A stretch of DNA of 61,240 bases, filler included. It is 3 parts of 3 records of this genome, joined end to end, with 100 filler letters (N's around TTAATTAATTAA, not from the genome) between each part and the next. Parts side by side here need not be neighbours in the genome. Positions count along the whole stretch, not along the records: positions 27,387 to 51,170 come from DRR723986_4698; 2 more parts are not named here. One strand, written 5' to 3'. A program made the translations under genes and the position numbers. Below are positions 31,175-47,228 of the stretch, one piece after another. The stretch's first letter is position 1; every line of letters starts with the position of its first letter. The notes under the pieces were generated by a model that was not told where the DNA came from, made no database searches, and saw only the letters and a program-made list of their open reading frames with translations.

Positions 31175-31680
31175 GGACGGTTCGCAGGACTTCAGGCGTG
31201 AAGAAGGATGTCCGGTCAACGCCCGGCCAAACCTCGGTCAGGGCCGCTCTGATGGCGGCCGGGATGGTATGCGCGGCGGTGGTGCCGGAGTTTGCCGCCG
31301 CAGAGCAGACGACAGGTACCACGCGGCCTGCGGCATCGGACGGGCAAGGCGTCGCGACGGGCGCCGTCGCCGCATCGGCCCGGGAAATCCTTGCGCTGAT
31401 CGAGGTCGGCTCGGCCTTCGAATTCGCCCTGAACGACGCACATGCGGAAGCCATGGTGCTTCTGCGTCGGACCGAGCGCGAACCTCCAAGCCCTGCCCGA
31501 GACCGGCGGCTTCAGGAGTTGCGCCGCCTCCTCCCGGAAATGGACCGTCTGATCGAAGCGGTCTTCGCGACGGAGGTCGCGTTGAAGAAGCGTCTGATGG
31601 CCTCCGATGCTTCGGAAGGGGGCGCGCCGAAAGCCATTCAGGACAAAACAAGGAGCGGACATGAACATGAAGACGATTAG
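31171..31680 (+). CDS. Exported helical protein (shorter paralog of 31661-32317)
   Basis: Hydrophobic leader; VLLRRTEREPPSP motif shared with next gene. Confidence 0.65.
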   Translation: MRTVRRTSGVKKDVRSTPGQTSVRAALMAAGMVCAAVVPEFAAAEQTTGTTRPAASDGQGVATGAVAASAREILALIEVGSAFEFALNDAHAEAMVLLRRTEREPPSPARDRRLQELRRLLPEMDRLIEAVFATEVALKKRLMASDASEGGAPKAIQDKTRSGHEHEDD

Positions 31681-32317: not shown

Positions 32318-32339
32318 CTCCCCAGAAAAGGACCACCCG

Positions 32340-32957
32340 ATGATTTTCGCATCACGCCTTGCCCTGATCGCCCTTCTGACCTCGGCCACGCCGGTCTTGG
32401 CGCAGACCGAAGAGCCCGACATGGTCGAGCTTGTGGAAAGCGTCACCACCATCGCCACCGGTCTTTCGAACCGTGTCGCGACCCTCGGCGACATAATCGC
32501 CAACACCAAGGACGGCGACGCCGCCGCCAAGGCGCTGGACGACATGCTCGAAGCCGCCCGGCAGATGCAGGCCGATCTGGGCCGCGACAGCGCGGTTTGG
32601 GAAGACATCGACACCATGGTCGAAGTCTGGACCGCACGCCGGGACGATTTGCGCGAGCGGGCGGTTGAAAATCGCGCGCTCATGCCCGTTGCCGAAACCT
32701 GGCAGGCTCGGATTGACGAGGCGCTGGCGCTTCGTGATCAGATCAAGGACCAGTCGGACGAGTCCCTGGCGCTGATCGACCAGATCGAGTCCCAGCGGGA
32801 AGTGGTGATCGCGCTCTACGAAGCCGGGGAAGCGGATCAGGCGCTCCAGACCATGCGGTCGATCTCGGACGAGCTCGGCCAGATGAACGCGCAGATGACC
32901 TCCATCGTGAACCAGGCCGGGATCATCGCAGAACCGGTCGCGGTCGCGACGGAGTAG
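32340..32957 (+). CDS. Exported coiled-coil protein
   Basis: AAGGA + ATG 32340; signal peptide ending PVLA/Q; all-helical heptad pattern. Confidence 0.8.
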   Translation: MIFASRLALIALLTSATPVLAQTEEPDMVELVESVTTIATGLSNRVATLGDIIANTKDGDAAAKALDDMLEAARQMQADLGRDSAVWEDIDTMVEVWTARRDDLRERAVENRALMPVAETWQARIDEALALRDQIKDQSDESLALIDQIESQREVVIALYEAGEADQALQTMRSISDELGQMNAQMTSIVNQAGIIAEPVAVATE

Positions 32958-32961
32958 AGGC

Positions 32962-33345
32962 ATGAGGACGGCGGCTTTCGTTCTTGCGGCTCTTCTGCTC
33001 GGCGGCCCTTGCGCCGCCGGGCCGGAGACCGGCCCGCAGGACGGCACCATGGACCTCTCGCAAGCCGCCAGCCTGGTCGACGCGGCCGAAGGCAACGTCG
33101 AAGCGCTGGACGCGCTCATCGCGGGGCGGGAAATCGCGCTCGACGACCTTTACCTGCAGCGCGACGCCGCAGCGGACCGCAACGAACCCGGACGGGTCGC
33201 ACAGCTCGACCGGGTCATCGACAAGTTGAACCTGACCCTGACCCAGTTGGAGGCCGAACGGGACGCGATTGCCGGCCAGGTCGCGACTCTCAAGAAGCTG
33301 ATCGCCCAGCTTCGGTCGGAAACCGCGTCCGAAGATGGAGAATAG
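32962..33345 (+). CDS. Small exported coiled-coil protein
   Basis: Signal peptide; long heptad run LDRVIDKLNLTLTQLEAERDAIAGQVATLKKLIAQL. Confidence 0.75.
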   Translation: MRTAAFVLAALLLGGPCAAGPETGPQDGTMDLSQAASLVDAAEGNVEALDALIAGREIALDDLYLQRDAAADRNEPGRVAQLDRVIDKLNLTLTQLEAERDAIAGQVATLKKLIAQLRSETASEDGE

Positions 33346-33351
33346 CCCAGG

Positions 33352-33996
33352 ATGACACCGTTCCCTTCCGCGCGGCTTGTGCTGCCACTGTTCTTCTCAG
33401 GCCTTCTGTCGGTTGCCGCGATCGCGGGCGGCGGCGCATTCGTGCCGCCGCCCGGGGCGGACACGGGCGAGTCCATGGTTCAGCGGCTTTACGGCAACCC
33501 CTTCGTTCTGCTGATCGGGATCGTGGGTCTTTGGGCTTTCTTCTACGGCTTGCTGCAACTCTGGTCGTTCCAGTCCGGGATGAAGGGCATACTGGGACGC
33601 CTTGCCGGCCATGCGGGTCCACCCCCCCCTGCCGTTCGCACCGAGGAGGCGACCCTCTCTGCGGGGCTCTATACCGAGCGCTGGGACCATCTAGGCGCGA
33701 TCCGGATGGCGCCGTTGTCCTATGCGATCTGGGTGCTGCCACTGCTGGGGTTCATCGGCACGGTCATCGGGATTTCCGATGCCATCGGCGATCTCGGAAG
33801 CGTTTTCGCCGACAACGACCGCGAGGAAGCCCTGTCCTCCGTCCTCGGCGCGCTGAGATTCGCATTCGACACGACCTTTGCCGGTCTCGTGCTCGTGATG
33901 CCGGTCATGGCGTTGGCGACGGCCGTTTCGCTGCATTCGGACGCTGCGCGGGACGCCGCACTCGCCGAGAGCTTCGGCTCGTCTGGCGGAGACTGA
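33352..33996 (+). CDS. MotA/TolQ/ExbB proton-channel family protein
   Basis: LPLLGFIGTVIGIS and ALRFAFDTTFAGLV TM helices with the conserved Thr residues. Confidence 0.88.
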   Translation: MTPFPSARLVLPLFFSGLLSVAAIAGGGAFVPPPGADTGESMVQRLYGNPFVLLIGIVGLWAFFYGLLQLWSFQSGMKGILGRLAGHAGPPPPAVRTEEATLSAGLYTERWDHLGAIRMAPLSYAIWVLPLLGFIGTVIGISDAIGDLGSVFADNDREEALSSVLGALRFAFDTTFAGLVLVMPVMALATAVSLHSDAARDAALAESFGSSGGD

Positions 33997-33999
33997 TCC

Positions 34000-34479
34000 A
34001 TGCGGGTGTCGAGGACGATCAACCACAGGGCCCAGTATACCGCCTTGGTGGATATTCTCTTCGCGACGATCGGTGTCTTCGTGATCGTGTTCGCACTGCA
34101 GGACATCGAGGCTCCGACCGATTTGCAGCCGGCCCCCTACGATCACCTGATCCTCTGCGAGGAGGGTTCGAGCCCGGCCTATCTGGGACGCGCGTCCGAA
34201 GACGAACTGGCGCTGCAAAGCGCGGATCTGCGGTCGGACCGGGTGCGGGACCTGCTGGCGGACGGCGGGCGCGTCCTCGTCGCCCTGTCGGCATCCTGCC
34301 TTTCCGAGGACGGCGCCGACGCACCGGCAGTTGTCCTGCATGCGCTCGAGGATGAGCTGTCCGAACGGTCGGCCAAGGGTGACTCGCCTCTGATCCTGTT
34401 CGAATATGCCCCTCTTGGCCAAGGGGAGCATGACGCGGAAACCCTGCGAGAGCGCTTTCTTTCGGAGCTGTCCCGATGA
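34000..34479 (+). CDS. ExbD/TolR-like single-pass partner protein 1
   Basis: N-terminal TM containing Asp (TALVDILFATIGVFVIVF); directly follows the ExbB-like gene. Confidence 0.6.
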   Translation: MRVSRTINHRAQYTALVDILFATIGVFVIVFALQDIEAPTDLQPAPYDHLILCEEGSSPAYLGRASEDELALQSADLRSDRVRDLLADGGRVLVALSASCLSEDGADAPAVVLHALEDELSERSAKGDSPLILFEYAPLGQGEHDAETLRERFLSELSR

Positions 34480-35144
34480 TCGGGCTGGGGTTTTCGGCGA
34501 CACCGGCGCAGCCCTATCCCGAAACGGATGTCGGGATGCTGGACGTGTCCGCCAATGCGCTGGCTGTGCTCATTCTCGCGACGATGCTCGTGCTTTCCGT
34601 CGCCGCACCACCCGCACCGCCGGGCGAGGTGCGACGGGACAATCGGCCAGAGGTCTTCTATCCCTCGCCGCTCGACGTCGCGGTCTCGCCGCAAAGTGCC
34701 TATTGGGCGGTGACGCGGGGTGGTGTCACGCAGATCGATCTCGACGCCTTTGCCGTCGGACTGGCCGAAGGATCCACCGTCGCGCGCAGCGAACAGGGGC
34801 AGGCAACGCTCGTCATCGACCGCCGCAATTACCGCGACCTGAACGACCACCGGCTGCATCTGTCGCTGGATTGGGCAGCGATCGAGACGACGGCAACCCC
34901 GCCCGACGACGCAGGGGCCTTCGGTTCGGTCCTGAACGAGATCCGCCTTGCGTTCGAAGAGGACGGGACGGCGCCGACCTTCTTTGTCCGCGCCGAGGCC
35001 GCCGCGGAATTCGCGGGTCTCTACTGGGCCCTTCGTGACATCCGCGTCCCCATACGCTGGGCCTCGCTGACCGACCGGACTCCTTTGGTCCTGTCCCGCC
35101 GCAACACCAACTATGAAAGAAGGGCCCGCCAATGGCAGCGGTGA
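34476..35144 (+). CDS. ExbD/TolR-like single-pass partner protein 2
   Basis: N-terminal TM with Asp (GMLDVSANALAVLILATML); C-terminal FFVR...F strand-helix segment reminiscent of ExbD. Confidence 0.55.
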   Translation: MIGLGFSATPAQPYPETDVGMLDVSANALAVLILATMLVLSVAAPPAPPGEVRRDNRPEVFYPSPLDVAVSPQSAYWAVTRGGVTQIDLDAFAVGLAEGSTVARSEQGQATLVIDRRNYRDLNDHRLHLSLDWAAIETTATPPDDAGAFGSVLNEIRLAFEEDGTAPTFFVRAEAAAEFAGLYWALRDIRVPIRWASLTDRTPLVLSRRNTNYERRARQWQR

Positions 35145-36058
35145 TCTCGCAGAATACGCGCAGTCATCTGGTCGGAGGCATCCTGTGCGGACTCGCCATA
35201 CTGGCCCTTCGCCCTTTGCCCGAGCTCGGCGACGGCGATCCTCCGCGCGACCCGATCGGGGACCAGATCGAGGAAAAGATCGAGGACATCCGGACCGGCA
35301 AGGCCGAGGAAGACGCCGAAGGTGTCGCCGAAGAGGCCGGGCTGGTGCCCATGGCATCGCCCTGCACGATGCGCCGCGCCCGGCAGGCTCCGGGTGTCGA
35401 GCAGTCGTGGCGCCATCGCTTTGCCGCGGCGACAATTGCCACCGGAAACGAACCGCGGATTGCGCTTCTCGAAGACCTCGCGGTCAGCGCAGGCGACGAC
35501 CTGACGCGCTGGCGGGTGGATATCGCCTTTGCCGAACTCGGCCTTCGGTCGGGCGACGATGCGTTGACACGCGACCATCTCGAGCGGGCCGCGACCCGGA
35601 ACGTTCCGGACACCTGCCGGGCGGACGAGGCCTTTTTCCTCGCCGACCTTGCGGACACACCGGCAGGGGCCGCGCGTCTGCTGGATCGTGCCGTCGCGCT
35701 GGATCCCGGGTTCTGGTCTGCGCAGGAACGTCTGGCGCTTCTGGCGGCGTCCGGAACCGGGTCCGATCCGCAATCCTGCGAAGCCGATGCCCTGCGCGCG
35801 CTTGGCGCGGTCGTGCAACTCGGCGCCCTCGCCCGTCGGGATGTCCAGTTCGAGCGCCTGAACCGCGCTCTCGAAGGGATGCCGATCAATGGGCGCACGG
35901 CCTTGTTGCGCGGCATGATCCTTCGGCAGACCGGAGAGACCGCCGCAGCCCGCGACGCCTATGTGGCGGGCCTGAACAACCTCGATGGATCGCCCTGCGA
36001 TGCCATCCTGTCGCGCGCACTCAGCGGCATGATCGACGCCACGGAGGACGCGGGATGA
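35132..36058 (+). CDS. Membrane-anchored TPR-like protein
   Basis: N-terminal hydrophobic segment; TPR-like helices (AARLLDRAVALDPGFWSAQERLALL; LLRGMILRQTGETAAARDAY). Confidence 0.7.
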   Translation: MAAVISQNTRSHLVGGILCGLAILALRPLPELGDGDPPRDPIGDQIEEKIEDIRTGKAEEDAEGVAEEAGLVPMASPCTMRRARQAPGVEQSWRHRFAAATIATGNEPRIALLEDLAVSAGDDLTRWRVDIAFAELGLRSGDDALTRDHLERAATRNVPDTCRADEAFFLADLADTPAGAARLLDRAVALDPGFWSAQERLALLAASGTGSDPQSCEADALRALGAVVQLGALARRDVQFERLNRALEGMPINGRTALLRGMILRQTGETAAARDAYVAGLNNLDGSPCDAILSRALSGMIDATEDAG

Positions 36059-36600
36059 CGACAGCGACACGAGCGCGGCACAGCCTTCAGGCACTCGCTT
36101 GCCTGCTTGCCTTTCCCGGGGCGCTGGCCGCCGGGGAGTGCGGCCTTCGGCTCTCGGAAGTCGATGCGGCGACAACGGAGCTTACGCAGGAGGTCGAGGA
36201 CCTGTCGCGCACACTGGCCGTGATGTTCCGGGACTTCGCCAAGCTCGAGGCCCGGGCCAACGATCCCCAAGGGGGGTGCCCGGACGCGCTTTCGACCAGT
36301 CTGGAGGACGCTCGAACCCTCGATGTCGACAGCCTCGAGGCGCGCGGTGACGCGTTGCTCAGATGCGGTCAGGATTACGAGCTTCGGGTACAGGCCGACA
36401 TCGCTGCGGCCACGCGGGACAACGACAGCCAGATGCTCCTGCGCCTGACCGAGATACAGAGGCGAATCCTCGCCGTGCAGGCGCAGGCGACCGAAAACCT
36501 TGTCAGCGCCACCTTTCTCGGCTTGCGGGCCGACCGTCTCGTGAAAGAGCACGGCACGGTCCTGCAACGCTGCGCAATCCTCGGTGACGCCTATGACTGA
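36055..36600 (+). CDS. Exported helical Cys-containing protein (paralog of 30365-31174)
   Basis: ATG 36055 after GGAGG, overlapping previous stop; signal peptide ending GALA; shared C/F.KLE/CPD/C.Q/L.RC..L..Y pattern. Confidence 0.78.
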   Translation: MTTATRARHSLQALACLLAFPGALAAGECGLRLSEVDAATTELTQEVEDLSRTLAVMFRDFAKLEARANDPQGGCPDALSTSLEDARTLDVDSLEARGDALLRCGQDYELRVQADIAAATRDNDSQMLLRLTEIQRRILAVQAQATENLVSATFLGLRADRLVKEHGTVLQRCAILGDAYD

Positions 36601-36632
36601 CGGCACCCTGTCATGCTTGCCGGAGGTCGCCC

Positions 36633-37193
36633 ATGACTAGCCTCGCGTTCGGACTGTTCGGGCTGGCCCTCGTCTTTCTGGGGACATCCAGACTGCGCGC
36701 ACCCGTGACACAGGCGATCTGGTTTTCCTGTGCCATGGCGGCGCTGGCCAATCTGCTGATGCAGCCCGGAAGCTTCGCCGAAGTCGCCCTTTGGGCCACG
36801 GCGGCCGGCGGCCTCTGCCTGCTGGATCGGGCCAGATCCCGACCCGACGAGACGTTGGTTTTCGCGGCCATAGCCGGGGTTCTGATCGGTGCCGTCGGGC
36901 CGCATGTCGGGGCCGGTCTCGATCAAGTCGCTTCCTTGCCCGGTTGGGTTTCGGGGGTCTTGGGTTTGGTTGTCGCGCTGACGGCCGGACATGCCTTCGG
37001 CTCCATCGCGGCTGCGGCGATGGCCGCGCTGTCCTGCGCGTTGACGCTTGGACTTCTGACACCCGCTTTGCCCGGCGCATTGATCGTCAGCCTGCTTCTT
37101 GCGGCGGTCGCCCTGTCCACGCGGGCCGTCCGACCGGCCGTTCTCTCCCTGCTCCTTGTCCCCGCAACGGCCACGATCGGAGGTCCCTCATGA
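36633..37193 (+). CDS. Multi-pass inner-membrane protein
   Basis: Almost entirely hydrophobic, ~6-7 TM segments; GGAGG upstream. Confidence 0.72.
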   Translation: MTSLAFGLFGLALVFLGTSRLRAPVTQAIWFSCAMAALANLLMQPGSFAEVALWATAAGGLCLLDRARSRPDETLVFAAIAGVLIGAVGPHVGAGLDQVASLPGWVSGVLGLVVALTAGHAFGSIAAAAMAALSCALTLGLLTPALPGALIVSLLLAAVALSTRAVRPAVLSLLLVPATATIGGPS

Positions 37194-37807
37194 GCCGCTC
37201 ATCGACCCTTATCGCGCTGGTTCTCGGGCTCGGCAGCGTCAGCGTGGCCGCTGCGCAGGACACCGTGACCGCGCCACCGGCTCCGGTGCAAGAGGAGGCA
37301 ACGACGCCGCCGCCAGAGGGGCAACGACCGGCGCCCTTGACAGCCCCCGCCGATCCTGTGGCGCAGGTCGCCGCGATGCGCGAGGCCTTGGCCGCGCTGC
37401 GCGAACGGCAGTCCACCGACGATGCGATGCGATTGCCTGCCACCCCGCAGACGCTCGAGGCTTTGCAACGCACCGAAGCAGAGATTGCCGCCCTCGAGTC
37501 ACGGCACGAGGGCGCAGTCTGGAGGGCCCACAATCTTGGCATCCTGTCGCGGGCATTGGCAGCCGCGCCGCCCGGCGCTCTGCCGCAGGGCATCCCTGAC
37601 GGCACCAAACCCGATATCGCCCTGGCGGTGATCGAGCCGGAAACGACGCTCTATGCCGCCCCGCAGGTCGATGCGCAAACGACGATCGGAACGGTCGCGA
37701 CGCTGACGACCGTCCTGCGCGTGGCCGAAGTCGGGGCCTTTTCACTGCTCTGGTCGCAACAGGATGGTTTCGCCTTCGTGCTCAGCCATTTCCGAAAGGT
37801 CTACTGA
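37190..37807 (+). CDS. Exported protein with Pro-rich linker, coiled coil and possible SH3b-like C-terminal domain
   Basis: ATG 37190 after GGAGG; signal peptide ending AAA/Q; C-terminal TLYAAP.....IGTV.....L.V.E.G.F......G.AFV resembles SH3b. Confidence 0.65.
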   Translation: MSRSSTLIALVLGLGSVSVAAAQDTVTAPPAPVQEEATTPPPEGQRPAPLTAPADPVAQVAAMREALAALRERQSTDDAMRLPATPQTLEALQRTEAEIAALESRHEGAVWRAHNLGILSRALAAAPPGALPQGIPDGTKPDIALAVIEPETTLYAAPQVDAQTTIGTVATLTTVLRVAEVGAFSLLWSQQDGFAFVLSHFRKVY

Positions 37808-40233
37808 TGGTGTTCTCCGGTTTTCGAAGCCTCTGCTGCGGGTGCATTGCCGCGATCCCTTCGGGGGTCTGGGCGCAGGAACCCACGGTGGAAGACGTGG
37901 CACGGATGATCGCTCAGCTGTCTGCCCAGGTCGAAGCCGCCGAAGCGATACCTTTCCCTGAAAGTTCGGAGGGCGCCGCGCAGGCCAGACTTTCGGCGAT
38001 GACCGACAGGCTTCAGTCACTGGAGGCGGTCTTGGCCGAAAGCGAGGCCATTTCCACGGACGCCACGGCGAGGATCGTCGCCGCCTTGCCCCAGTTCCCC
38101 GCGGCGCGGCCCGTCGTACGGCCGGAACCGCCGGCCCCTGACCCGGAACCGCAACCGGAACCGCAACCGGCGTCGCAGCGGGAGCCGGAACCGGCATCGC
38201 AACCCGAGCCGGAGCCAAACCGGGAGCCTGAGCCTGCACCGCAACCCGAGCCGCAGCCGGACCCGACCCTGCAGGTCGAGAATTTGCCCGCTCTGGACAC
38301 GCTGACCGAACCTCTGGCCTTTGGCGAACGGGCGCGGCGCGTCCTGTCCAGACCGGGGGCGGAGCTTGTGACCGCGGCGGGGGACACCAAGGCTCTGCCC
38401 GCCTTTTCGGTGCTCTACGTCTTTGCCGAAGCAGGCGACCCGGAGAACCGGCTTCTTGCCGTCGGGCGCAGCACACGGGGTGCCGATGGCTGGGTGCCCG
38501 CATCCCGCACCGAAGACTGGCAAACGATGCTCGTCATGTCCTATGCGCCCTCGACCGGGCGCGACCGAACCGTCTTCTTCAGTTCGGCCGATGACGTGCT
38601 GGATATCCTCGATCTCGAAGAGGGCTCGAAGGACGCCATTCGGCAGATACACGATCGGATATCGAACGGGGCCTACGATCCCGACAGGATCGTGGCGATC
38701 GAGCCAGCCTTCACGGTCGACAGTGTCGAACGTCCCTATCTGATGCCCGTGCTCGATTTCCTGCAGACGAGCACGGAAACCCATGGCGACGTCACCATCC
38801 TGCAACTTGCGGCGCTCAATCGGGACAGCACCGATGTGGCGACGACCGGCAGGCAACCCGTCGGGCAGGTCCGGATCACGACCGAGGCCGACGACGCGGA
38901 GTTTCGGATCGGGATTGCATTCGTCATCGACACGACACGGTCCATGGGGCCCTACATCGACAGGGCCAAGGAATTCGTGCGCGAGATATCGACCGGGCTG
39001 GGCGACCGGGGGCTTCAGGATCGCTTCGATTTCGCGCTGGTGGGCTACCGCGACAATCCGGAGGCGGCCGAGGGGGTCGGCTATCTTCGGCGGGTCTACC
39101 GGGATTTCGAAAGGCCCGACGAGCAGACGACCCTGTTCTCGGACGTCGAGGAGATGCGCCCGGCGGCCAGTTCCACAGCCAACTGGCGCGAGGACGCGTT
39201 TGCCGGCATCGACCTTGCCATCGGCGGCCTGAACTGGGACGCGGTCGATACACGGCTGGTCTTTCTGATCACCGACGCGTCGCCCCGGTCGGTCGGCGAC
39301 AGTCTGGCAGCCAATGCCCAGATGGGGCCGGAGACCATCAACGCCTTGGCCGCACAGCGCAACATCTCGCTGTTCGTGCTGCACATGCAGACCGAGGAAG
39401 CGGCGCGCGTAAGCCAGAGCAACGAGGGGTACGACGATACGGCGCGCGGCCAAAGCCTGTATCTGCGCATGTCACAGACGGGTGATGCGGCGATTTCGAA
39501 GTACTTCAGCGTCAAGGGAGAGACGGAAGGCGCCTTCGAGAACGCGCTGGACCTGATCTCCGGATTGGTGATCGAGCAACTCAGCCAATTGTCCTCCGGT
39601 GGTCAGCAGGTCGCGAACCCCGGTGTCGCCGACGATCCGTTCCTGGATGCGATCACTGCAGGCGGTGCGGTCCAGATCGCGGACGAGCAGGACGCACCGC
39701 TCGTGGCGGCCGCCGTCGCCGGCGAACTGTTCCGCTACCGGACCGAGTATCTTGGCGCCCGGTCCGGTGTGGAGGCGCCGGACTTCTACCGCGGATGGGC
39801 CGTCGACAGGGACATCGCGAACCCGTCCCGACGGTCGCTCGACGTCAGCGTGTTCGTCACGCGCGAACAGTTGAGCGATCTGGCGAAGCGCCTTGGCGAC
39901 ATCATCACGCGGCTGCGCGAAAAGGACATGGGCATGGGGGATTTCTTCTCTTCGGTGCAGGCGCAGTCCGGCTCTACGGTCGTCGACCCGACCTTCAGAA
40001 GTTTTCTGCCCAGCTACCTGACCGATCTGCCCTACGGCTCGAAGTTCATCAACATGACGCCCAGCACCTGGGACAGCCTCGGCGAGATCGGCCGCGGGCA
40101 GTTGCTCGACGAGGTCGAAGCGAAACTGGCCTCGTACAACCGGATCTACGCGACGCAGGATGGTTGGATTGCGCTGGATGGCCGGGCGACCGAAGATCAG
40201 GTCTATCCGATGCCCCTGCGTGACCTGCCATGA
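37807..40233 (+). CDS. Exported vWA-domain protein resembling the periplasmic part of PpkA, with no kinase domain
   Basis: Signal-like leader, PE/PQ linker, LPAFSVLYV...GWV...GRDR..FF region, MIDAS-like FVIDTTRSMGPYI, LVGYRD, EDAFAGI, FLITDA. Confidence 0.82.
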   Translation: MVFSGFRSLCCGCIAAIPSGVWAQEPTVEDVARMIAQLSAQVEAAEAIPFPESSEGAAQARLSAMTDRLQSLEAVLAESEAISTDATARIVAALPQFPAARPVVRPEPPAPDPEPQPEPQPASQREPEPASQPEPEPNREPEPAPQPEPQPDPTLQVENLPALDTLTEPLAFGERARRVLSRPGAELVTAAGDTKALPAFSVLYVFAEAGDPENRLLAVGRSTRGADGWVPASRTEDWQTMLVMSYAPSTGRDRTVFFSSADDVLDILDLEEGSKDAIRQIHDRISNGAYDPDRIVAIEPAFTVDSVERPYLMPVLDFLQTSTETHGDVTILQLAALNRDSTDVATTGRQPVGQVRITTEADDAEFRIGIAFVIDTTRSMGPYIDRAKEFVREISTGLGDRGLQDRFDFALVGYRDNPEAAEGVGYLRRVYRDFERPDEQTTLFSDVEEMRPAASSTANWREDAFAGIDLAIGGLNWDAVDTRLVFLITDASPRSVGDSLAANAQMGPETINALAAQRNISLFVLHMQTEEAARVSQSNEGYDDTARGQSLYLRMSQTGDAAISKYFSVKGETEGAFENALDLISGLVIEQLSQLSSGGQQVANPGVADDPFLDAITAGGAVQIADEQDAPLVAAAVAGELFRYRTEYLGARSGVEAPDFYRGWAVDRDIANPSRRSLDVSVFVTREQLSDLAKRLGDIITRLREKDMGMGDFFSSVQAQSGSTVVDPTFRSFLPSYLTDLPYGSKFINMTPSTWDSLGEIGRGQLLDEVEAKLASYNRIYATQDGWIALDGRATEDQVYPMPLRDLP
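38122..38265 (+). repeat. Pro/Glu/Gln-rich coding repeat (PEPQ-like) in the vWA gene
   Basis: Degenerate CCGGAACCGCAA units encoding PEPPAPDPEPQPEPQPASQREPEPASQPEPEPNREPEPAPQPEPQPDP. Confidence 0.8.
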
Positions 40234-40952
40234 CCGCCGTGCTGTCCATCAGGGACATGAGGATCGCGGTCGGCAGCCATCCGGACAACCGTTTCGAACT
40301 CGATGTGCCCGCTCTCGATCTTCAGGCGGGGCGATATGTTGCCGCGGTGGGGCCCTCGGGCTGCGGCAAATCAACCTTTCTGGAAGTGATCGCCCTGTTG
40401 CGGCGGCCCGAGCGTCTGCGGACGTTCCAGTTGTATCTGGGGCCGGACAGGGGATCCCTCGACCTCGGAGCCGGCACGGACTGGACTCATCTCCGCCGGG
40501 GACCGATCGGGTACATCCCGCAATCCGGCGGTGTGCTGCCGTTCCTGACGGCACGGGACCACGTCCACGCCCCGCTCCGCATGGCGGGCGCGGATCGCCC
40601 GCCACAGGCCGAGCACCGGCTGCGCCTTTTGTCACGCGATCTGGAGATCGAGCCGCATCTCGGCAAGCGACGGGCCGAGCTTTCGGGAGGGCAGCGCAAA
40701 AGGGTCGCACTTCTGGCGGGTCTGTCCCTACCCCGAAGGCTCCTGATTGCCGACGAACCCACTGCGGGACTGGATGCCAAGATGGCCAAGCGCGTCCTGC
40801 AAACCCTCGCAGGCATCGCGGAGCGCGAGGGAACCGCCGTCGTGATTGCGACACATGATGTCGAGATCGCGCAGGGCGCAGGCTTCGACCTGCTCTCCAT
40901 CACGGACCGGGTCGTGCGGCCAGTCGCGTCGGAGGAGCGGGCGCATGCCTGA
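40230..40952 (+). CDS. ABC ATPase, LolD/MacB type (TagT-like)
   Basis: GPSGCGKST, LSGGQRKRV, LIADEPTAGLD, ATHD. Confidence 0.9.
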   Translation: MTAVLSIRDMRIAVGSHPDNRFELDVPALDLQAGRYVAAVGPSGCGKSTFLEVIALLRRPERLRTFQLYLGPDRGSLDLGAGTDWTHLRRGPIGYIPQSGGVLPFLTARDHVHAPLRMAGADRPPQAEHRLRLLSRDLEIEPHLGKRRAELSGGQRKRVALLAGLSLPRRLLIADEPTAGLDAKMAKRVLQTLAGIAEREGTAVVIATHDVEIAQGAGFDLLSITDRVVRPVASEERAHA

Positions 40953-42180
40953 AACCGGGCTCGGGAACAACCTGCTGGCTGCGGAGGGCTCGGCCGCGCG
41001 CTTCGCCCTCGCCGACATGCTGCATGATCGCAGGCTGACGCTGGTCGGCATCGTTTTGCTGGCCGCACTGATGGCTCCGCCTTTCGTCCTGCACAGCCTC
41101 CGCGTCGGCCTTGTGGAGACCTGGGCACGGGATCTGGCGCGCGACATCCGCAACCGTGAAATCGTCATCGTCGGCGAGAACAAGATCGCGCCGGGGGATC
41201 TGGCCACCATATCCGACTGGCCTCAGACCGGCTTCGTCGTTCCGGAGCCGTCGTTCTTCGTATCGACGCAACGGGTCAGAAAGGCGGACACGCGCGGCGT
41301 GTCCATCGACCTGAACTTGCGGACCAGCGCTTTCGGCGATCCGGTCATGCAAGGGTTTGCCGAAACCCCGCTGGAGCCGCTGGATATCGTGCTTTCCGCG
41401 CGCGCGGCGGAACGGCTCGGCGTGGTGCCGGGCGATCGTGTGACGGTGTTTCTCGCCCGCACACCATCCGGTGGCGAACCCGTACGGCAGGCCGTCGACA
41501 TGACGATCCGTCGGGTGCTGCCCGCGCAACGCTGGGCCGATACCAGCGGGTTCGTTTCGCCGGAAACCTTGCTGGGATTCCGCGATTGGTTGTCCTTCGT
41601 GACGGATGATCCGCTCGATGCCGGGCAACCGGCGCAGGCGGTCTGGCAATCCCTGCGCATCTACGCGCCGACGGTCGCCGAAGCTCCGGCGCTTCGGGAC
41701 AGGCTGGACGCCTTCGGGTTCGAGACCCGGCTGATGACGGATCAGGTCGACCGGATCCTCAAGCTCGAGACGGGGTTGCGCAGCATTTTCCGTATCGTCC
41801 TTGCCCTGTCGGCGACCGCATTCGTGATCACGGCTTTCCTGCTGCAATGGATCGGCGTCATGCGAAAGAAACGCGATTTCGCCCTGATGACGGTTTTCGG
41901 GATGACCCGCGCCCAGATCATGGTGTTTCCGGTCACGCAAGGCGTGCTGATGGCGGCTGTCGCCGGTCTTTTGGCGCTTGCCCTCGTAGCCGGGATGCAA
42001 GCGCCGGTCGCGACCATCGTTCAAGGGTATCTGTCAACGCCAGCCACCGTTCAGACACCTGCGTTCCCGCCGCTGGTCGGCGGTCTTGCCGTGGCGATGC
42101 TGATCGGCGCCGGAGCCGGAATGGCGGCGATCCGCATGTTGACGGCGGATGATCTTTCCCAAGCGCTGCGAGGAGATTGA
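40945..42180 (+). CDS. ABC permease, FtsX/LolE type (TagS-like)
   Basis: ATG 40945 after GGAGGAG; TM + large periplasmic loop (LSARAAERLGVVPGD) + three C-terminal TMs. Confidence 0.85.
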   Translation: MPETGLGNNLLAAEGSAARFALADMLHDRRLTLVGIVLLAALMAPPFVLHSLRVGLVETWARDLARDIRNREIVIVGENKIAPGDLATISDWPQTGFVVPEPSFFVSTQRVRKADTRGVSIDLNLRTSAFGDPVMQGFAETPLEPLDIVLSARAAERLGVVPGDRVTVFLARTPSGGEPVRQAVDMTIRRVLPAQRWADTSGFVSPETLLGFRDWLSFVTDDPLDAGQPAQAVWQSLRIYAPTVAEAPALRDRLDAFGFETRLMTDQVDRILKLETGLRSIFRIVLALSATAFVITAFLLQWIGVMRKKRDFALMTVFGMTRAQIMVFPVTQGVLMAAVAGLLALALVAGMQAPVATIVQGYLSTPATVQTPAFPPLVGGLAVAMLIGAGAGMAAIRMLTADDLSQALRGD

Positions 42181-42183
42181 GGG

Positions 42184-44091
42184 ATGTGGATACATCAAGA
42201 TACGCCGGGTGTCGCTACTGCCATTCTGCTTGCCGCGATGCTCGGTTCCGGAGCCCCGTCCTCGGCGGAGCCCGCCCCGCCCCCCGTCATCGCGGAAAAC
42301 TGGTGCGAGCTCGACGCGCCGGGGGTCTGGCGCCAGTCCCGCCTGGAGGGTCCGGGAGCCTGCCCCGCCGCCCTGCCGGTGCCCGAGATGCCGAAGGATC
42401 TGGTCATTCCGCTGCCCTGCGGCCGCCATCTGGTGCTGAAGCGGCTCGACACGCCGGCCAGTACCATTCTCGATCATGTGGTCGGAACGCTTGGCGGAGC
42501 AGGCGAAGCAGGCCTGATGCAGCGATATCTTCAGGGAAGCCGAACCGAAGCCATCGCCGGTGGATACACGATTGCCGCGGACGGCGGGGGCGGCCTGATC
42601 GCGCGGGCCATCTACGTCCAGAGCCACGAGTGGACCGAATTGCAGGACACCCTCTTCACCAGCGGTACCCTTGCGGCTTGGTCACGAGACGAGGCGCCTG
42701 CGCGGGCGGTGAACGACGAAGTCTGCGCCGGTCCCATCGCACAAGCCGAGGAGACGCGGTGGCGCGACGTGCGCCCTCGGACCGGCCTCAGTTTCTTCGA
42801 TGCACAGGACCGGCTTCGGGCCCTGAACGCCTACCTCGCCGCGGAAAGCAGGCGTCGGATCGCAGCCGGAGACCACCCCCTCGTGCCATGGGAAGCGGGC
42901 TCTCCCGGGTTTCTGCGGCTGCCGTCCGAAACCGAATGGGAGTTCGCCGCACGCGGCGGGGCGGTCGGCATCGGCGTGAACGCGCAAATCGCGACCTACC
43001 TGATCCGCGAACCGGAGACCGGCGCCGTCCGCGCCGCGGAACTGGAGGAAATCGCCGTCATCAGCGACGGCACGTCGCGCCGGACCTTCGCCGGCGTGGG
43101 CGGCAAGCACCCCAATCTCGCCGGCCTGTTCGACATGGTCGGCAATGCGTCCGAAATCACGCAGGACCTGTTCCGTATCGTCCGGCCGGATGCCCTTCAC
43201 GGCGCGCACGGTGGCTTTGTCCTGCGGGGGGGCCATGCGCTGACACCGCTCGCGATGTCCGGCGTCGCTCATCGGGCCGAGGCGCCGTTCTTCGGAATCG
43301 ATGGCGAGGTCGCCCCCGCACCCGCGGGCCTGCGCATGATCCTCAACCCGCCCATCCTGACCGCCGGAGCGCCGAAGCCCGGCACCTACCAGACCGACCT
43401 GCAGAACGTACAGTTCGAGGAGGACCTCGCGCAGGCGCATCAACGTCTCGTGGAAATTCGCCAGACACCGGGCGCGGCCTTCCGATCCGAGGCAAGGGCC
43501 CTTCTGGCCGCGGTAGGGCAAAGCACCCCCGAAAGGGCGGATCTGCAAAGGCAACTCGAGCGGGTCGAGATCGCCCTCGAACAATCGGAAAGCGCCATCA
43601 ACGCGGCGCGGCGCTCTGAACTGGCGGCGATGATCCGCTCTGCCGCGACCGGCATCCTGAATATCCGCGTCAACGGCGTGATGGGTGTGACGATCCTCCA
43701 GCATCTGCCCGAGCTTCGCGCGATGGTGGCGGAAAACAAGGAACTGGCAGACCACCCGGAAGGCCAACGCCTGCTGGACGCGATCTCCGCCAGAGAACGC
43801 GAACTGGATGCCCGGCTTGCCATGATCGACAGCCAGACGCGAACGGTGCTCTCCCTCGTGCGCACCATCGCGGCGGAGGATCCGATCCTGGTCCGCGACG
43901 TTCTGGGGCAGGTCAAGGACGACATCGCCGCCGAGGGTCTCTGGCTTTACGAGGAACGGTCATGGCCGCTGTTCGACCAGGCTCTTGCGGACTACCAGCA
44001 GGACCCCGCGGCGGAACTCTTCGACACTTACCTGCCGCTTTTCGACAGCGCCCGACCGACGCGCGACCGTCTGCGCCTTGAAAACCCGTAA
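42184..44091 (+). CDS. Formylglycine-generating enzyme (SUMF1) domain protein with C-terminal coiled coil (TagR-like)
   Basis: Signal peptide, PLPCG, FLRLPSETEWEFAARGG, PNLAGLFDMVGNASE, VLRGG. Confidence 0.85.
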   Translation: MWIHQDTPGVATAILLAAMLGSGAPSSAEPAPPPVIAENWCELDAPGVWRQSRLEGPGACPAALPVPEMPKDLVIPLPCGRHLVLKRLDTPASTILDHVVGTLGGAGEAGLMQRYLQGSRTEAIAGGYTIAADGGGGLIARAIYVQSHEWTELQDTLFTSGTLAAWSRDEAPARAVNDEVCAGPIAQAEETRWRDVRPRTGLSFFDAQDRLRALNAYLAAESRRRIAAGDHPLVPWEAGSPGFLRLPSETEWEFAARGGAVGIGVNAQIATYLIREPETGAVRAAELEEIAVISDGTSRRTFAGVGGKHPNLAGLFDMVGNASEITQDLFRIVRPDALHGAHGGFVLRGGHALTPLAMSGVAHRAEAPFFGIDGEVAPAPAGLRMILNPPILTAGAPKPGTYQTDLQNVQFEEDLAQAHQRLVEIRQTPGAAFRSEARALLAAVGQSTPERADLQRQLERVEIALEQSESAINAARRSELAAMIRSAATGILNIRVNGVMGVTILQHLPELRAMVAENKELADHPEGQRLLDAISARERELDARLAMIDSQTRTVLSLVRTIAAEDPILVRDVLGQVKDDIAAEGLWLYEERSWPLFDQALADYQQDPAAELFDTYLPLFDSARPTRDRLRLENP

Positions 44092-44124
44092 CCGCCCGAA
44101 ACAGACCGAGGGAGATAGAAGAGA

Positions 44125-44976
44125 ATGCATTTCAAGACCATGGCTCGGAGGTCGTTCAAATGGGCGAACATCGCGCTCGTTTCCGCGGCGCTCGTCCTGA
44201 CGGGCTGCACCGCCTTGCCGACGACGCAGGAAATGGCCGTCACGCAGGACGAATGCACGCGGTTCCGGACCCCATTCACCGAGATCGCCGCGGAACGGAA
44301 GAAGCGGATCGAACGCTATGCAGCCATCGGTGCCACGGTTGGCGCGGTGGTGGGGCAGCAGGCGGCGCGCCGCAGGAACGAGAACCCGATCGCGGGCGCC
44401 CTCGTCGGCGCGCTGGCCGGAGCCGCCTTGGGCGCGACTGGCGGATATCTGAGCGATCTTCAGAAACGTTCGTCGACGACCGCCGGTCTGCAGAAGACGG
44501 TGGCTGGTGACGCCTCGCGCGACCTGCGCCAGACCGACGCCCTGGTCGTCGCGATGACCTCTCTCAATCGCTGCCGCCTCGAGCAGATATCGAAGGTCGA
44601 ACGGTCGGTCCGCGCTGGGGGAAGCCGCAGCGCCGCGACCGCGCAGATCCGCTCCATCCGGCAGAAGGTCGATGTGGACAACCGCATCATCCGCTCTGTC
44701 GTTGGCGATCTCACTCGGACACGCAATCTGTATATCGGCGCGCTGAAGCAGACTGGCGCGGATACGGACGGATATGTCGCGTCCATCCAGCGGTACAAGC
44801 CGCAGGCGACCACGCCGCAGCAGACCGCCCTGCGGGTCGACACGTCGCGGCGGCCGAAGACCGGCAACCCGGTCGCAAAACTCGGCTATGCCGAGAAGGA
44901 GCTGAGCGCGGGGGCAGAGGCGCACGCCAAGACCATCGATGCGGCAATCGACAGACTCGACGCCATGTTGATCTGA
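44125..44976 (+). CDS. tagQ: Glycine-zipper outer-membrane lipoprotein (TagQ-like)
   Basis: Lipobox LTGC, second Cys, GATVGAVVG...GALVGALAGAALGATGGY zipper, later Cys and coiled coil; position after TagT/S/R-like genes. Confidence 0.65.
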   Translation: MHFKTMARRSFKWANIALVSAALVLTGCTALPTTQEMAVTQDECTRFRTPFTEIAAERKKRIERYAAIGATVGAVVGQQAARRRNENPIAGALVGALAGAALGATGGYLSDLQKRSSTTAGLQKTVAGDASRDLRQTDALVVAMTSLNRCRLEQISKVERSVRAGGSRSAATAQIRSIRQKVDVDNRIIRSVVGDLTRTRNLYIGALKQTGADTDGYVASIQRYKPQATTPQQTALRVDTSRRPKTGNPVAKLGYAEKELSAGAEAHAKTIDAAIDRLDAMLI

Positions 44977-44986
44977 GCGAAAGGGC

Positions 44987-45589
44987 ATGAGGCACCGGTT
45001 CCCATTCGCCGCGCTACTGGCTCTGCTGGCCTGCGGAGCTTGCAGCACCCCCCTGCGGACGGAGGTCCAACCACGGATCACCCCGGTGCCATTGCGCATC
45101 GCGACCGCAGGCGGCCTGTCCTGCAACGGCGTGCGACTGGACGAACGGACGGTCGCGACGGCTGCGCATTGCGTGAGCGACGGGACCGCCGTGACGGTGA
45201 TGGAGGCGGGCAGATCCCTGTCCGCCTCCGACGTCGTCCTCCACCCCGGCTACGTCTTGCAGGATCTCGAAACGGCGGCGGGGTTCGATCTTGCGAAGCT
45301 GACGGCGCCCTCCGGTGCCGTGCCGGGCAGGATAGAGATTGCCCCGATTACGCCGGGCCCCGCTTTGCTGACGGCTTTGTCACGGTCCGGGGAACTGGTC
45401 TCGATCGAGTGCCCCTATCTCGGCCGGTCCGGCGCCATCGTCGAATTGACCTGTTCCGTACCGCTGGGCTGGTCGGGGGCGCCGATCCTCCAGAACGGCA
45501 AACTCGTCGGGGTCCTGAGCGCGAGGGGGGCTTCCGGTGCACCGCATGTGGTCCAGATGGCCGATGCGACGCGGCTCGGGACGTTTTGA
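44987..45589 (+). CDS. Trypsin-like serine protease lipoprotein
   Basis: Lipobox-like LLAC/GAC; TAAHC (His), FDLA (Asp), GWSGAP (Ser). Confidence 0.8.
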   Translation: MRHRFPFAALLALLACGACSTPLRTEVQPRITPVPLRIATAGGLSCNGVRLDERTVATAAHCVSDGTAVTVMEAGRSLSASDVVLHPGYVLQDLETAAGFDLAKLTAPSGAVPGRIEIAPITPGPALLTALSRSGELVSIECPYLGRSGAIVELTCSVPLGWSGAPILQNGKLVGVLSARGASGAPHVVQMADATRLGTF

Positions 45590-45684
45590 ATGGCGCGTCT
45601 GCGGTTCCGGATGCGCGGGCGCCCGGATCAAGCAGAGCACGCGATGACGAAGAACGGATGCGGCACATCCGGGAAAGGGATCAC

Positions 45685-46542
45685 ATGAGGAAGAAGACAT
45701 CCATCGACGGGCTTCTGATCGCGGTTTGCGCGATTCCGCTCATGTCGGCAGGGCATTCCGCCTACGCGGAGGCCGATATCGAAGCGGTGACATCCATCGT
45801 CGACGCCTGCGACATTCTCGCGGCGTCGCCGGATGATCCGCTGCGCGTCGCGCCGGGCGTGCCGGACGAAGCCATGGTGCCGCGACTGGCCGAAACGGCC
45901 TGCGCGCTTGCGCTGGAAGACAGCCAGGACGTCGCCCGCCACGCCTATCAATTGGGCCGGGCGAAGCTGGAGCTTGGCAAGTACGACGATGCGCTGGTCC
46001 TGTTCGAACGCGCGGCCGCGGCCGGGTCGGCGATGGCATATCTCTCGATCGGCGACGCGCATCACTTTGGCTGGGCCGGCGAGGTCGATCCTCAGGCCGC
46101 GCGGGCGTCCTACGAAAAGGCGCGCGACCGGGGATTGTTCCTTGGCGACATCGCCCTCGATCAACTGGTGTTCGCGCCCGACATCTTCACGACCGGACCG
46201 ATGCTCGACGTGCTCTATCGCAGGGACATCGCAACCGCCGCGGAATACGCGCGAAGCGACCTTGCGCGGTCCTATCTCTATGCCTTCGCCGTGGAACTTT
46301 CGGACGCCTGCGGGTCGTTTCTCTTGCCCCCGTCCGTGGGCGCGCTTCAGTCCTACCGCTTTCCGCCGGGCTGGACGGAGGCCTCCGAGCAAAGCAACAC
46401 CGAACTCGGGGTTCAGGACGTCAAGGCCACCTACGACGTGGAGGTTCTCGTCGACAGGCACGGCTGCAACGGCCATGTGGTCGAGACGATCGCGCTGGCG
46501 TTCAACGAGATGCTCGCGCTGCTGTCGGAGGAACCACGGTGA
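45685..46542 (+). CDS. Exported Sel1/TPR-repeat protein
   Basis: ATG 45685; signal peptide ending AYA; CD.LAA.P.DP...PGV...AC...R..YQLGRA then Sel1-like repeats. Confidence 0.8.
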   Translation: MRKKTSIDGLLIAVCAIPLMSAGHSAYAEADIEAVTSIVDACDILAASPDDPLRVAPGVPDEAMVPRLAETACALALEDSQDVARHAYQLGRAKLELGKYDDALVLFERAAAAGSAMAYLSIGDAHHFGWAGEVDPQAARASYEKARDRGLFLGDIALDQLVFAPDIFTTGPMLDVLYRRDIATAAEYARSDLARSYLYAFAVELSDACGSFLLPPSVGALQSYRFPPGWTEASEQSNTELGVQDVKATYDVEVLVDRHGCNGHVVETIALAFNEMLALLSEEPR

Positions 46543-47228
46543 TCGGTCTCGTCGCGCCTCTCTTCCTCGCCTGCAGCGGCCTGTGCGCCGAGGCTTCGGC
46601 CGAGCGGGAACAGCCCCTCCTTCTTGCAGAGCAACAAGCCGGACCCGGAAACCCCTTCCTCTCAAAGCCGGAAAGCAACGAGCCCCGCACCCGGACCGAA
46701 GACGCCGGTCCGTTCGGCGGCAGCTCGCAACCCGGCCTTTCGGTCCCGACCGATTGCGGAGCATCCTCGGGTCTGGGGCGTGCAGACCTCCGCAAGCCTC
46801 ATGTTGCCGAGGCGCTGTGCGCCGGAGCCTTTCACGACCTCGACGACGAATGGTTGTTCGTCCTGAACTACGTGCGCGGCTTCAACGAATTCCTGGAAGA
46901 GCGCGGGTCCTTTCTGGACCCGACCGGCGCCTGTTCCCGCGCCGTAGAGCCGCGCGCATCGCTCGGGCTGGTCTACAGCGTCGTCGATCGCGCCATGTCC
47001 GGCGACCTGAGCGGCTTCGAAGACGACAGGTTGACGGCGATGTTGAAGCCCTTTCAGGAAGATTGGAAACGACTGCCCTTCATCGTCTGGGAATTGAACG
47101 TTTGGAAACGTGAAGGGCGGCTGGACGCGACAAGTGTGGCCTCGAAAGGCATGTGCGCCGATCCGGCGTTTCTCCTCTTCTGGGATAAAGCCATCGAATA
47201 CGTCCAACGCGTTCCGGTGGTGGACTGA
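46539..47228 (+). CDS. Exported hypothetical protein
   Basis: GTG start overlapping previous stop, GGAGG upstream; signal-like leader; several Cys. Confidence 0.65.
   Translation: MIGLVAPLFLACSGLCAEASAEREQPLLLAEQQAGPGNPFLSKPESNEPRTRTEDAGPFGGSSQPGLSVPTDCGASSGLGRADLRKPHVAEALCAGAFHDLDDEWLFVLNYVRGFNEFLEERGSFLDPTGACSRAVEPRASLGLVYSVVDRAMSGDLSGFEDDRLTAMLKPFQEDWKRLPFIVWELNVWKREGRLDATSVASKGMCADPAFLLFWDKAIEYVQRVPVVD

Follow-up and report, generated by a model that had tools for sequence, protein, structure and literature searches.

Kinase-less homologues of the PpkA-TagTSRQ outer-membrane-damage sensor in a predicted operon with a putative Tol/Exb-type stator

The 61,240-nucleotide stretch of DNA analysed here, referred to below as the window, carries five consecutive genes (g12-g16) that are, on sequence comparison, homologues of the PpkA ectodomain, TagT, TagS, TagR and TagQ, respectively, the kinase of PpkA being missing. 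They make up the last third of what appears to be a single operon, g2-g17. With slightly better than even confidence, we propose that this operon encodes one envelope-spanning apparatus in which a kinase-less sensor of outer-membrane damage, independent of a type VI secretion system (T6SS), is combined with a Tol/Exb-type stator and a lipoprotein protease, and that its output is periplasmic. The sensor probably drives a response other than the T6SS. The window consists of three parts joined with fillers of 100 N's, and adjoining parts need not be neighbours in the genome; positions 27,387-51,170 derive from DRR723986_4698. The G+C content is 59-67% as far as approximately 52 kb, and the source is a marine member of the Roseobacter group, the closest relatives being Yoonia, Loktanella and Octadecabacter, in which the von Willebrand factor A (vWA) protein encoded by g12 has 67-79% identity.

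In a 2026 study on Pseudomonas aeruginosa, outer-membrane damage is reported to induce a 2:2 TagQ:TagR complex, and modelling together with loop mutants suggests that this complex binds two PpkA ectodomains, by way of the FGE domain of TagR in the model, and dimerizes the kinase; the ATPase activity of TagST is required, its role being left open, and the H1-T6SS response is described as possibly unique among Gram-negative bacteria (PMC13713981). According to a review, study of TagQRST has been confined to Pseudomonas, where it was treated only as a T6SS trigger (PMC13584744). Genes of the srfABC group are placed beside tagQ and ppkA, with or without tagRST, in host-associated Deltaproteobacteria mostly devoid of a T6SS in an earlier report (Campbell et al., 2013; PMC3608642), and SrfA is modelled in a 2026 preprint as a kinase-like domain, a membrane helix and a lipocalin-like domain. 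Literature searches, with supplements outside their scope, gave no paper joining Tag genes with ExbB or ExbD among the matches listed.

The five sensor genes are as follows.

g12, 37807-40233, plus strand: kinase-less homologue of the PpkA periplasmic region, 808 residues, with a vWA domain
g13, 40230-40952, plus strand: TagT-like ATP-binding cassette (ABC) ATPase; Pfam ABC_tran, E = 1.4e-20
g14, 40945-42180, plus strand: TagS-like permease of the FtsX/MacB type, its periplasmic domain ~230 residues long; Pfam FtsX, E = 1.4e-10
g15, 42184-44091, plus strand: secreted TagR-like protein that has an FGE domain and is helical in its C-terminal half; FGE-sulfatase, E = 2.6e-15
g16, 44125-44976, plus strand: TagQ-like glycine-zipper lipoprotein with the lipobox LTGC; Gly-zipper_YMGG, E = 7.5e-7

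These co-directional open reading frames (ORFs) fill 37807-44976. The row that had been read from the letters alone in the initial annotation (vWA protein, ATPase, permease, FGE-domain protein and glycine-zipper lipoprotein) is present as described, and each member is supported by a Pfam match, that of g12 (VWA_4, E = 3.6e-5) lying under the Pfam cut-off. The NCBIfam models nearest to g13 are of the DevA/MacB/LolD/FtsE type. The order vWA-ABC-FtsX-FGE is far beyond chance and recurs in related loci.

A search of g12 against 5.8 billion proteins returned kinase-less relatives at 59-79% identity and, at E ~1e-69, Pseudomonas Ser/Thr kinases of ~1,000 residues named PpkA, which are matched in their C-terminal part over 78% of the query. 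In a comparison set of 69 Pseudomonas loci around PpkA, tblastn placed g12 at the expected position in 68 (E = 8e-77), and g13 (E = 1e-36; 39% identity to the gene after ppkA), g14 (E = 2e-22; TagS position) and g15 (E = 1e-31, residues 9-374; TagR position) in all 69. The g16 protein went undetected by tblastn against the same 69 loci; profile-profile comparison of seven g16-type proteins with seven Pseudomonas TagQ sequences gave 98.1% in hhalign (E = 8.6e-14, 204 columns). Since the tblastn matches of g12-g15 and the hhalign match of g16 are significant, all five genes are homologous to their Pseudomonas counterparts, and the kinship with PpkA and TagT/S/R/Q asserted in the initial annotation withstands comparison at both the sequence and the profile level. 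The g16 protein is a distant TagQ member, because it matches the NCBIfam model VI_TagQ with just 24 bits (E = 1.6e-5) against a cut-off of 300. The gene order g12-g16 corresponds to ppkA-tagT-tagS-tagR-tagQ in a P. entomophila locus annotated with NCBIfam (L083), which reads TagH(Fha)-TssK-TssL-TssM-TagF-PP2C phosphatase (PppA)-PpkA-TagT-TagS-TagR-TagQ; there TagQ scores 483 bits, and the gene at the TagT position is named an ABC ATPase. Sequence searches with g12, g15 and g16 against solved structures gave nothing informative.

The g12 protein comprises a signal peptide ending VWA/Q, a helical hairpin, a Pro-rich spacer and a conserved region (~170-808) that includes the vWA motif D375-T-T-R-S379, with no later transmembrane helix; the calls of this signal peptide, of the g16 lipobox and, below, of the g17 protease motifs and the helix-turn-helix of a flanking protein, like this membrane assignment, were made by eye. 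In a 17-sequence alignment, the region shared with PpkA starts near residue 170, ends with the C-terminal LP and holds 58 invariant columns, among them D375, T376 and S379 of the vWA metal-site motif. Nothing in g12 aligns with the kinase part of PpkA, and g12 matches no Pkinase family in Pfam. A reading of g12 as a TonB-like anchored rod was rejected: by eye, the N-termini of five orthologues end AxA/Q like cleaved signal peptides, and a TonB model matches nothing beyond the Pro-rich low-complexity stretch.

When the six-frame translation of the whole window was scanned by phmmer (E<=0.01), Fha, TssK, TssL, TssM, TagF, PppA, the PpkA kinase domain (that of L083), SrfB and SrfC gave 0 matches. 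The signal-like leader of the vWA protein and the lack of Hanks kinase motifs noted initially are thus corroborated, the former by eye and the latter by Pfam, alignment and phmmer, and the reported absence of kinase, phosphatase and FHA genes extends to the entire window.

Upstream of the sensor genes and in the same operon lies the putative stator.

g5, 33352-33996, plus strand: ExbB/TolQ/MotA-type proton-channel subunit
g6, 34000-34479, plus strand: ExbD/TolR-like stator subunit with one transmembrane helix and a periplasmic domain
g7, 34476-35144, plus strand: second TolR-like subunit with a transmembrane helix and a larger periplasmic domain, from a rare orphan family

We interpret g5-g7 as a stator of the Tol/Exb type that has two divergent TolR-like subunits, on the strength of profile matches, conserved residues and predicted folds. 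The g5 protein matches Pfam MotA_ExbB (PF01618) with E = 1.4e-8 and 34.9 bits against a cut-off of 22.9, and its C-terminal half, with the stretches PLLGFIGTV.GI and FAFDTTF.GL, is strongly conserved in 10 sequences. The membrane Asp18 of g6 and Asp23 of g7 are each invariant in 10/10 sequences. The g6 profile aligns with a canonical ExbD/TolR profile from the same genomes (hhalign 80.3%, E = 1.4e-5, 91 columns), the aspartates being aligned. The AlphaFold2 model of g6 (pLDDT 80.5) has Escherichia coli TolR as its best match among 48,161 chains (Z = 5.9), tying with unrelated folds within 1 Z, and for the g7 model (pLDDT 71.3) the first two places among these chains go to periplasmic domains of TolR, at Z = 6.4 (root-mean-square deviation of 2.5 over 69 aligned residues) and Z = 6.2. 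Foldseek against the PDB gave no match at E<=0.001 for either model. The g7 family amounts to 92 clusters in the 5.8 billion proteins, all named hypothetical. A canonical tolQ-tolR-tolB set is located at 23072-26710 (plus strand), ~3 kb upstream of the flanking genes of the cluster by window position (TolQ, MotA_ExbB, 3.9e-33; TolR, ExbD, 1.1e-30; TolB, TolB_N, 2.3e-24, and PD40); because this set is also in the window, g5-g7 would be a second, separate stator.

The other genes of the cluster encode mostly exported proteins.

g1, 30365-31174, plus strand: secreted coiled-coil protein with a Cys-containing C-terminus, paralogue of g9
g2, 31661-32317, plus strand: signal peptide and helical periplasmic protein of ~200 residues, paralogue of g3
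g3, 32340-32957, plus strand: signal peptide and helical periplasmic protein, found in nine loci and also in the diverged G046 variant described below
g4, 32962-33345, plus strand: signal peptide and coiled coil of ~100 residues, found in nine loci; weak SlyX-like coiled-coil match
g8, 35132-36058, plus strand: N-terminal membrane anchor and periplasmic TPR-like domain with conserved cysteines
g9, 36055-36600, plus strand: secreted coiled-coil protein, paralogue of g1
g10, 36633-37193, plus strand: polytopic membrane protein of no known family
g11, 37190-37807, plus strand: signal peptide, Pro-rich stretch, coiled coil and conserved C-terminal beta domain
g17, 44987-45589, plus strand: small lipoprotein trypsin-like serine protease with TAAHC and GWSGAP motifs

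The 16 genes g2-g17 occupy 31661-45589, and their 15 junctions measure -13 to +33 nt; the stop of g11 overlaps the start of g12 by 1 nt. The block conserved with the related loci L001-L003 spans ~27.9-45.6 kb. The g1 gene may belong to a separate transcript because it lies 486 nt from g2; it is kept in L001-L003 and L006, is less conserved than g2-g17 and has no Pfam family, and its hidden Markov model (HMM) also matches g9 in those loci. The g2 gene, with no Pfam family above the cut-off, occurs in nine loci, and the HMMs of g2 and g3 match each other's proteins. The g8 protein, kept in 10 loci, shows weak TPR matches, and its nearest clusters in the Atlas are TPR proteins (score 0.95). Proteins of similar architecture occupy the g9 position in L007 and L008 and the g10 position in L007, L008, L012 and L014, and a g11-like architecture directly precedes the vWA gene in L007, L010, L012 and L014. 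The protease g17 (Pfam Trypsin, 3e-7; Trypsin_2, 4.4e-6) follows tagQ in L001-L003, L005 and L006 and lies elsewhere in the locus in L007 and L008, while larger PG_binding-trypsin proteins follow tagQ in L015 and L018-L020. A trypsin-like protease accompanies the sensor in its Srf-linked, motor-linked and stand-alone forms, and none was seen in the T6SS locus L083. A scan of 29700-46500 revealed no sigma-70-like promoter sites, and the 14 terminator-like sites in that interval, compared with a shuffle mean of 10.1, represent no excess over shuffles.

Related loci were collected by a pattern search seeded with nine kinase-less proteins, which gave 65 loci, some of them truncated, and their genes were scored with iterated HMMs built from the window's proteins. 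The ABC ATPase was found in 64, the FtsX permease in 61, the FGE protein in 57 and a TagQ-like protein in 48, in the same order. The kinase domain is missing in 61/65, a proportion biased against kinase-bearing forms because the seeds were kinase-less; the variety of partners is unaffected. SrfB (PF07520), SrfC (PF10139) or both stand directly upstream in 36 loci (representatives match Pfam with E of 0 and 1e-234), TssK-TssL-TssM-TagF-PppA together with a kinase domain occur in three, and one has a kinase domain only. The motor block g2-g8 is directly upstream in nine (L001-3, L006-8, L010, L012 and L014), which belong to Roseobacteraceae, Paracoccaceae, Chromatiaceae and metagenome-assembled genomes (MAGs; Rhodobacterales and Chromatiales). 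In a tenth motor-linked locus (L015/L136, Pseudaestuariivita) the block is convergent and downstream of the sensor. The remaining loci comprise two truncated close relatives and 13 with other or unknown neighbours. Among the carriers available in culture are Octadecabacter dasysiphoniae, Palleronia abyssalis and Marichromatium bheemlicum.

A quick tree of the vWA region by maximum likelihood (71 rows) places the motor-linked loci in a 19-row clade (SH-aLRT 100), the sister group of which unites Pseudomonas PpkA with deltaproteobacterial loci, three of the latter being Srf-linked. Of 401 genomes sampled from the family, four match the g7 profile, one of them weakly (E = 1.1e-5), and 32 the vWA profile; in each of the three where the g7 match is strong, G046 among them, the motor genes adjoin a vWA-like gene and an FtsX-type ABC. 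In 13 of the 92 g7-family clusters, the longest contig is equally long as in one of the first 56 vWA-family clusters, which we use as a proxy for location on the same contig. Neither a co-occurring T6SS nor an obligatory separate kinase was found in the searched carriers of motor-linked loci. TssC was found in one of eight such genomes (0/3, then 1/5), ~1 Mb from the cluster, and TssM in 0/4, the P. entomophila control giving two matches. Pkinase was absent from two of four (Octadecabacter and Palleronia) and present in the other two, and FHA was present in one of four and not found in three. SrfB and SrfC were not found in G001-G003, a search in which the SrfB control also matched nowhere. 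Tabulated over the 65 loci, T6SS core genes adjoin the sensor in three and the motor block in 10, and the srfB/srfC neighbourhood cited in the initial annotation proves to be real, being present in those 36 loci and described in PMC3608642.

Two variant arrangements deserve description. The Srf-linked layout (36 loci, L016-L064, for example L041 and L050) consists of a trypsin-like protease, a 437-residue protein, SrfB, SrfC, a 450-residue protein, the vWA protein, TagT, TagS, TagR, TagQ and often a small coiled-coil protein; the 437-residue protein sits at the SrfA position and has no Pfam match, and the 450-residue protein matches DUF6384 weakly. A diverged and rearranged variant in another genome of the family, G046 (L138, 461-13672, minus strand; G046:C1, ~320-334 kb) encodes, in order, proteins of 491 and 988 residues of no known family, a weakly vWA-like protein of 825 residues, a fused MacB-like ABC ATPase/FtsX permease (763 residues), a coiled-coil protein, ExbB, an ExbD-like protein and, last, the second and rare protein of TolR-like type; FGE and TagQ genes are missing from this locus.

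The cluster is flanked by the following genes.

Divergent 362-residue protein, 28704-29792, minus strand: 62-63% identity at the same place in L001-L003
203-residue protein beside the putative regulator, 27950-28561, minus strand: 52-55% identity at the same place in L001-L003
TPR-CHAT protein and partner, 48271-51079, minus strand: cytoplasmic caspase-like protease of 632 residues (CHAT, 6.6e-24) and its 297-residue partner, which belongs to no known family
Cys-rich repeat protein of 543 residues, 54271-55902, minus strand: type IX C-terminal sorting domain (Por_Secre_tail, 5.4e-9, above the cut-off)

The 362-residue protein is a possible regulator because its C-terminus resembles a LuxR/GerE helix-turn-helix; it has no Pfam match at E<=0.001, and the 203-residue protein belongs to no Pfam or PADLOC family. 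Between these divergent genes and the operon, just before the start of g1, positions 30318-30339 hold a strong G+C-rich hairpin of 9 bp and, after it, a T run (read on the minus strand). Two long ORFs (45833-47113 and 47110-48618) in the interval 45600-48200 (plus strand), between g17 and the gene of the CHAT partner, are putative genes with no Pfam or PADLOC family and no counterpart at that place in L001-L003. In Octadecabacter (L139, 8617-11490), the same CHAT pair (40% and 51% identity) is found on the other flank, upstream of the divergent 203-residue and 362-residue genes; the pair stays beside the cluster through rearrangement. Immediately upstream of the vWA gene, L015 (Pseudaestuariivita atlantica) encodes a cytoplasmic TIR protein (TIR_2, 8e-12; PADLOC SAVED_TIR, 1e-7) at 6271-9033, and L013, a proteobacterial MAG, an nSTAND3 NTPase at 2881-5364. 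Each seen in a single locus, the TIR and STAND proteins may be outputs of an immune type or simply share the island; we regard them as neighbours and not as components. The 543-residue protein lies in a low-G+C stretch (0.53-0.55 compared with 0.64-0.67 nearby) beside a TPR-GerE regulator (52529-54184); a Por_Secre_tail protein is odd for an alphaproteobacterium, and no match was found in five related genomes.

The apparatus we propose would consist of three parts. The sensor would comprise the TagQ lipoprotein, periplasmic TagR, a free secreted vWA ectodomain and the TagS/TagT MacB-type ABC machine; the motor would comprise the ExbB-like channel, the two TolR/ExbD-like proteins, the anchored TPR protein, the polytopic protein and five secreted coiled-coil proteins; and the third part would be the lipoprotein serine protease g17. 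By analogy with the P. aeruginosa model, perturbation of the outer membrane would lead the TagQ-TagR complex to capture and cluster the vWA protein. The signal would then stay periplasmic because no kinase is left to dimerize, an expectation drawn from synteny only. From there the signal would probably reach the stator, the ABC machine or both through the coiled-coil proteins and the clade-specific N-terminal part of g12, with its helical hairpin and Pro-rich tether. These machines could then act locally on the envelope, mechanically or by proteolysis, much as Tol-Pal or FtsEX do, replacing the phosphorylation cascade. The link to an upstream ExbBD-like motor suggested in the initial annotation is substantiated as far as conserved synteny of motor block and sensor is concerned; its mechanical character is conjecture.

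Several observations weigh against this proposal. Gene neighbourhood is the only tie between sensor and motor. The vWA clade of the motor-linked loci also holds seven loci without adjoining motor genes, and a g7 homologue was found nowhere in four of five searched genomes of these loci; sensor and protease can therefore stand alone, the motor not being obligatory. Pfam ExbD matches neither g6 nor g7, whether at E<=10 or in whole-genome scans, the g7 profile has a non-significant 0.4% (hhalign) against the canonical ExbD/TolR profile, and the fold matches of g6 and g7 have middling Z scores tied with unrelated folds. Among the cluster proteins, none was recognized as an anchored force transducer of the TonB/TolA type, which leaves g8, with its anchor and TPR domain, as the sole candidate for this part. 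The absence of a T6SS from the source organism is deduced from relatives. Lastly, the patchy distribution (4/401 genomes) and the TPR-CHAT, TIR and STAND neighbours fit an accessory conflict system at least as well as envelope maintenance.

Such a conflict or defence system, in which the module would detect a breach of the envelope by a phage, a T6SS attacker or a bacteriocin and the stator would relay the event to a cytoplasmic effector such as TPR-CHAT, is in our judgement unlikely. ZorAB of the Zorya system is thought to relay an envelope signal, and g5 has a weak ZorA match (E = 1.1e-4, 19.4 bits). The distribution is not only patchy but crosses classes; the TPR-CHAT gene and its 297-residue partner adjoin the cluster both in the window and in Octadecabacter, on opposite flanks; and L015 and L013 have, immediately upstream of the vWA gene, a TIR protein and an nSTAND3 NTPase, respectively. 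The Pseudomonas sensor itself answers attack by neighbours, according to PMC13713981. Against this, PADLOC 2.0.0 gave only generic ABC-ATPase matches (g13) besides the weak ZorA and nothing meaningful for the CHAT protein and its partner, and membership in a known defence system was rejected as no PADLOC family was assigned. The CHAT, TIR and STAND proteins appear cytoplasmic, with no membrane segment seen by eye, and each accompanies a subset of loci; no nuclease or NADase is encoded within the operon. The core of sensor plus motor is common to this explanation and to the apparatus favoured here, and just the stimulus and the output differ.

A role in transport, secretion or surface assembly, with the LolCDE/MacB-like ABC exporting or extracting a lipoprotein or some periplasmic cargo, the FGE protein and lipoprotein forming a ring close to the outer membrane like PorK/PorN of type IX secretion and the stator acting like PorLM/GldLM or AglRQS, seems to us decidedly unlikely. 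It would accommodate the DevA/MacB/LolD/LolCE models to which g13 and g14 are nearest, the make-up of one ExbB-type and two TolR-type subunits, which is that of AglRQS, and the protein with a type IX sorting domain 9 kb downstream by window position. The local GldK/PorK match (g15, E = 2e-6; Pseudomonas TagR, 3e-7), which also speaks for it, covers ~90 residues of the shared FGE domain with 27 bits against a cut-off of 350, and a type IX-like reading was rejected since this local match is all there is. The operon is without an outer-membrane channel or secretin gene, the sorting-domain protein used as query was unmatched in five carrier genomes, and beyond g17 only the CHAT partner gene matches L001-L003. 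Very improbable, finally, is a chance association of two unrelated systems, sensor and motor, sharing a transcript or an island. Sensor-only relatives exist, and the sensor also pairs with SrfABC or a T6SS; yet the pairing with the motor is found in 10 loci of two classes with reading frames overlapping or nearly touching, appears again in the rearranged G046 locus with its fused ABC protein, and is echoed by the 13 clusters of the rare g7 family with a contig as long as that of a vWA match.

Taking the related loci together, we tentatively advance a broader view, which we hold with rather less than even confidence: the TagQ-TagR-TagST-PpkA-ectodomain set may be a portable cassette for sensing outer-membrane damage that is plugged into at least three outputs, namely the T6SS via a fused kinase, SrfABC and a Tol/Exb-type motor. 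Where the motor is the output, the signal would at no point become cytoplasmic, and damage sensed at the outer membrane would gate or recruit the proton-driven stator and the ATP-driven MacB-type machine, both acting on site, mechanically or by proteolysis, in repair or defence. The same five-gene sensor is attached to quite different machines and is mostly kinase-less among the 65 loci, subject to the seeding bias, and one operon joins TagQ/TagR damage sensing with proton-driven Tol/Exb stators. If the proposal is correct, this would be the first stator known to be under the control of an outer-membrane damage sensor and a kinase-free setting in which to work out the role of TagST; the cultured carriers make both the function of the kinase-free sensor and the purpose of TagST directly testable.

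Compared with TagQRST-PpkA of the Pseudomonas H1-T6SS, the cluster has five homologous proteins in the same order. It differs in that g12 has no Hanks kinase and is a free secreted ectodomain with an added helical hairpin and Pro-rich spacer, and in that the window is without PppA, Fha, TagF and the T6SS core, a serine protease and a motor block being attached. The relation to Tol-Pal and Ton systems lies in an ExbB-family channel and, after it, single-pass proteins that have a membrane Asp and a putative TolR-like periplasmic fold, as in TolQ-TolR and ExbB-ExbD, and the TPR protein g8 and the coiled-coil periplasmic partners recall CpoB/YbgF of Tol-Pal; in contrast to these systems there are two divergent TolR-like subunits, and no TolA/TonB-like, TolB or Pal protein was found in the cluster. 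One ExbB-type and two TolR-type subunits also make up the AglRQS gliding motor of Myxococcus. FtsEX-EnvC and MacB-type systems share an FtsX-family permease with a large periplasmic domain, an ATPase and coiled-coil neighbours, and the cluster differs in having no amidase or LytM partner. Since FtsX grips the coiled coil of EnvC and TagS might act likewise, a complex of two g14 chains (40-300) with the g12 hairpin (24-105) was predicted; the result (score 0.00, mark 0.34), obtained without alignments or controls, is evidence neither way. With the PorK/GldK-PorL/M part of the type IX system the cluster has in common a non-enzymatic FGE-domain envelope protein encoded beside a proton-driven stator; the match is a local one in the FGE domain, and no PorM/N, Sov or PorV-like genes were seen. 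Also close are the Srf-linked neighbourhoods, the commonest context among the 65 loci, which likewise combine a kinase-less PpkA-type vWA protein with TagT/S/R/Q and no T6SS. Their vWA proteins are without the long N-terminal extension and, except for the three deltaproteobacterial loci, fall elsewhere in the tree, and the partner here is an ExbB/TolR-type motor rather than SrfB/SrfC. The motor-linked form appears to be new, and its Srf-linked sibling has been in print since 2013.

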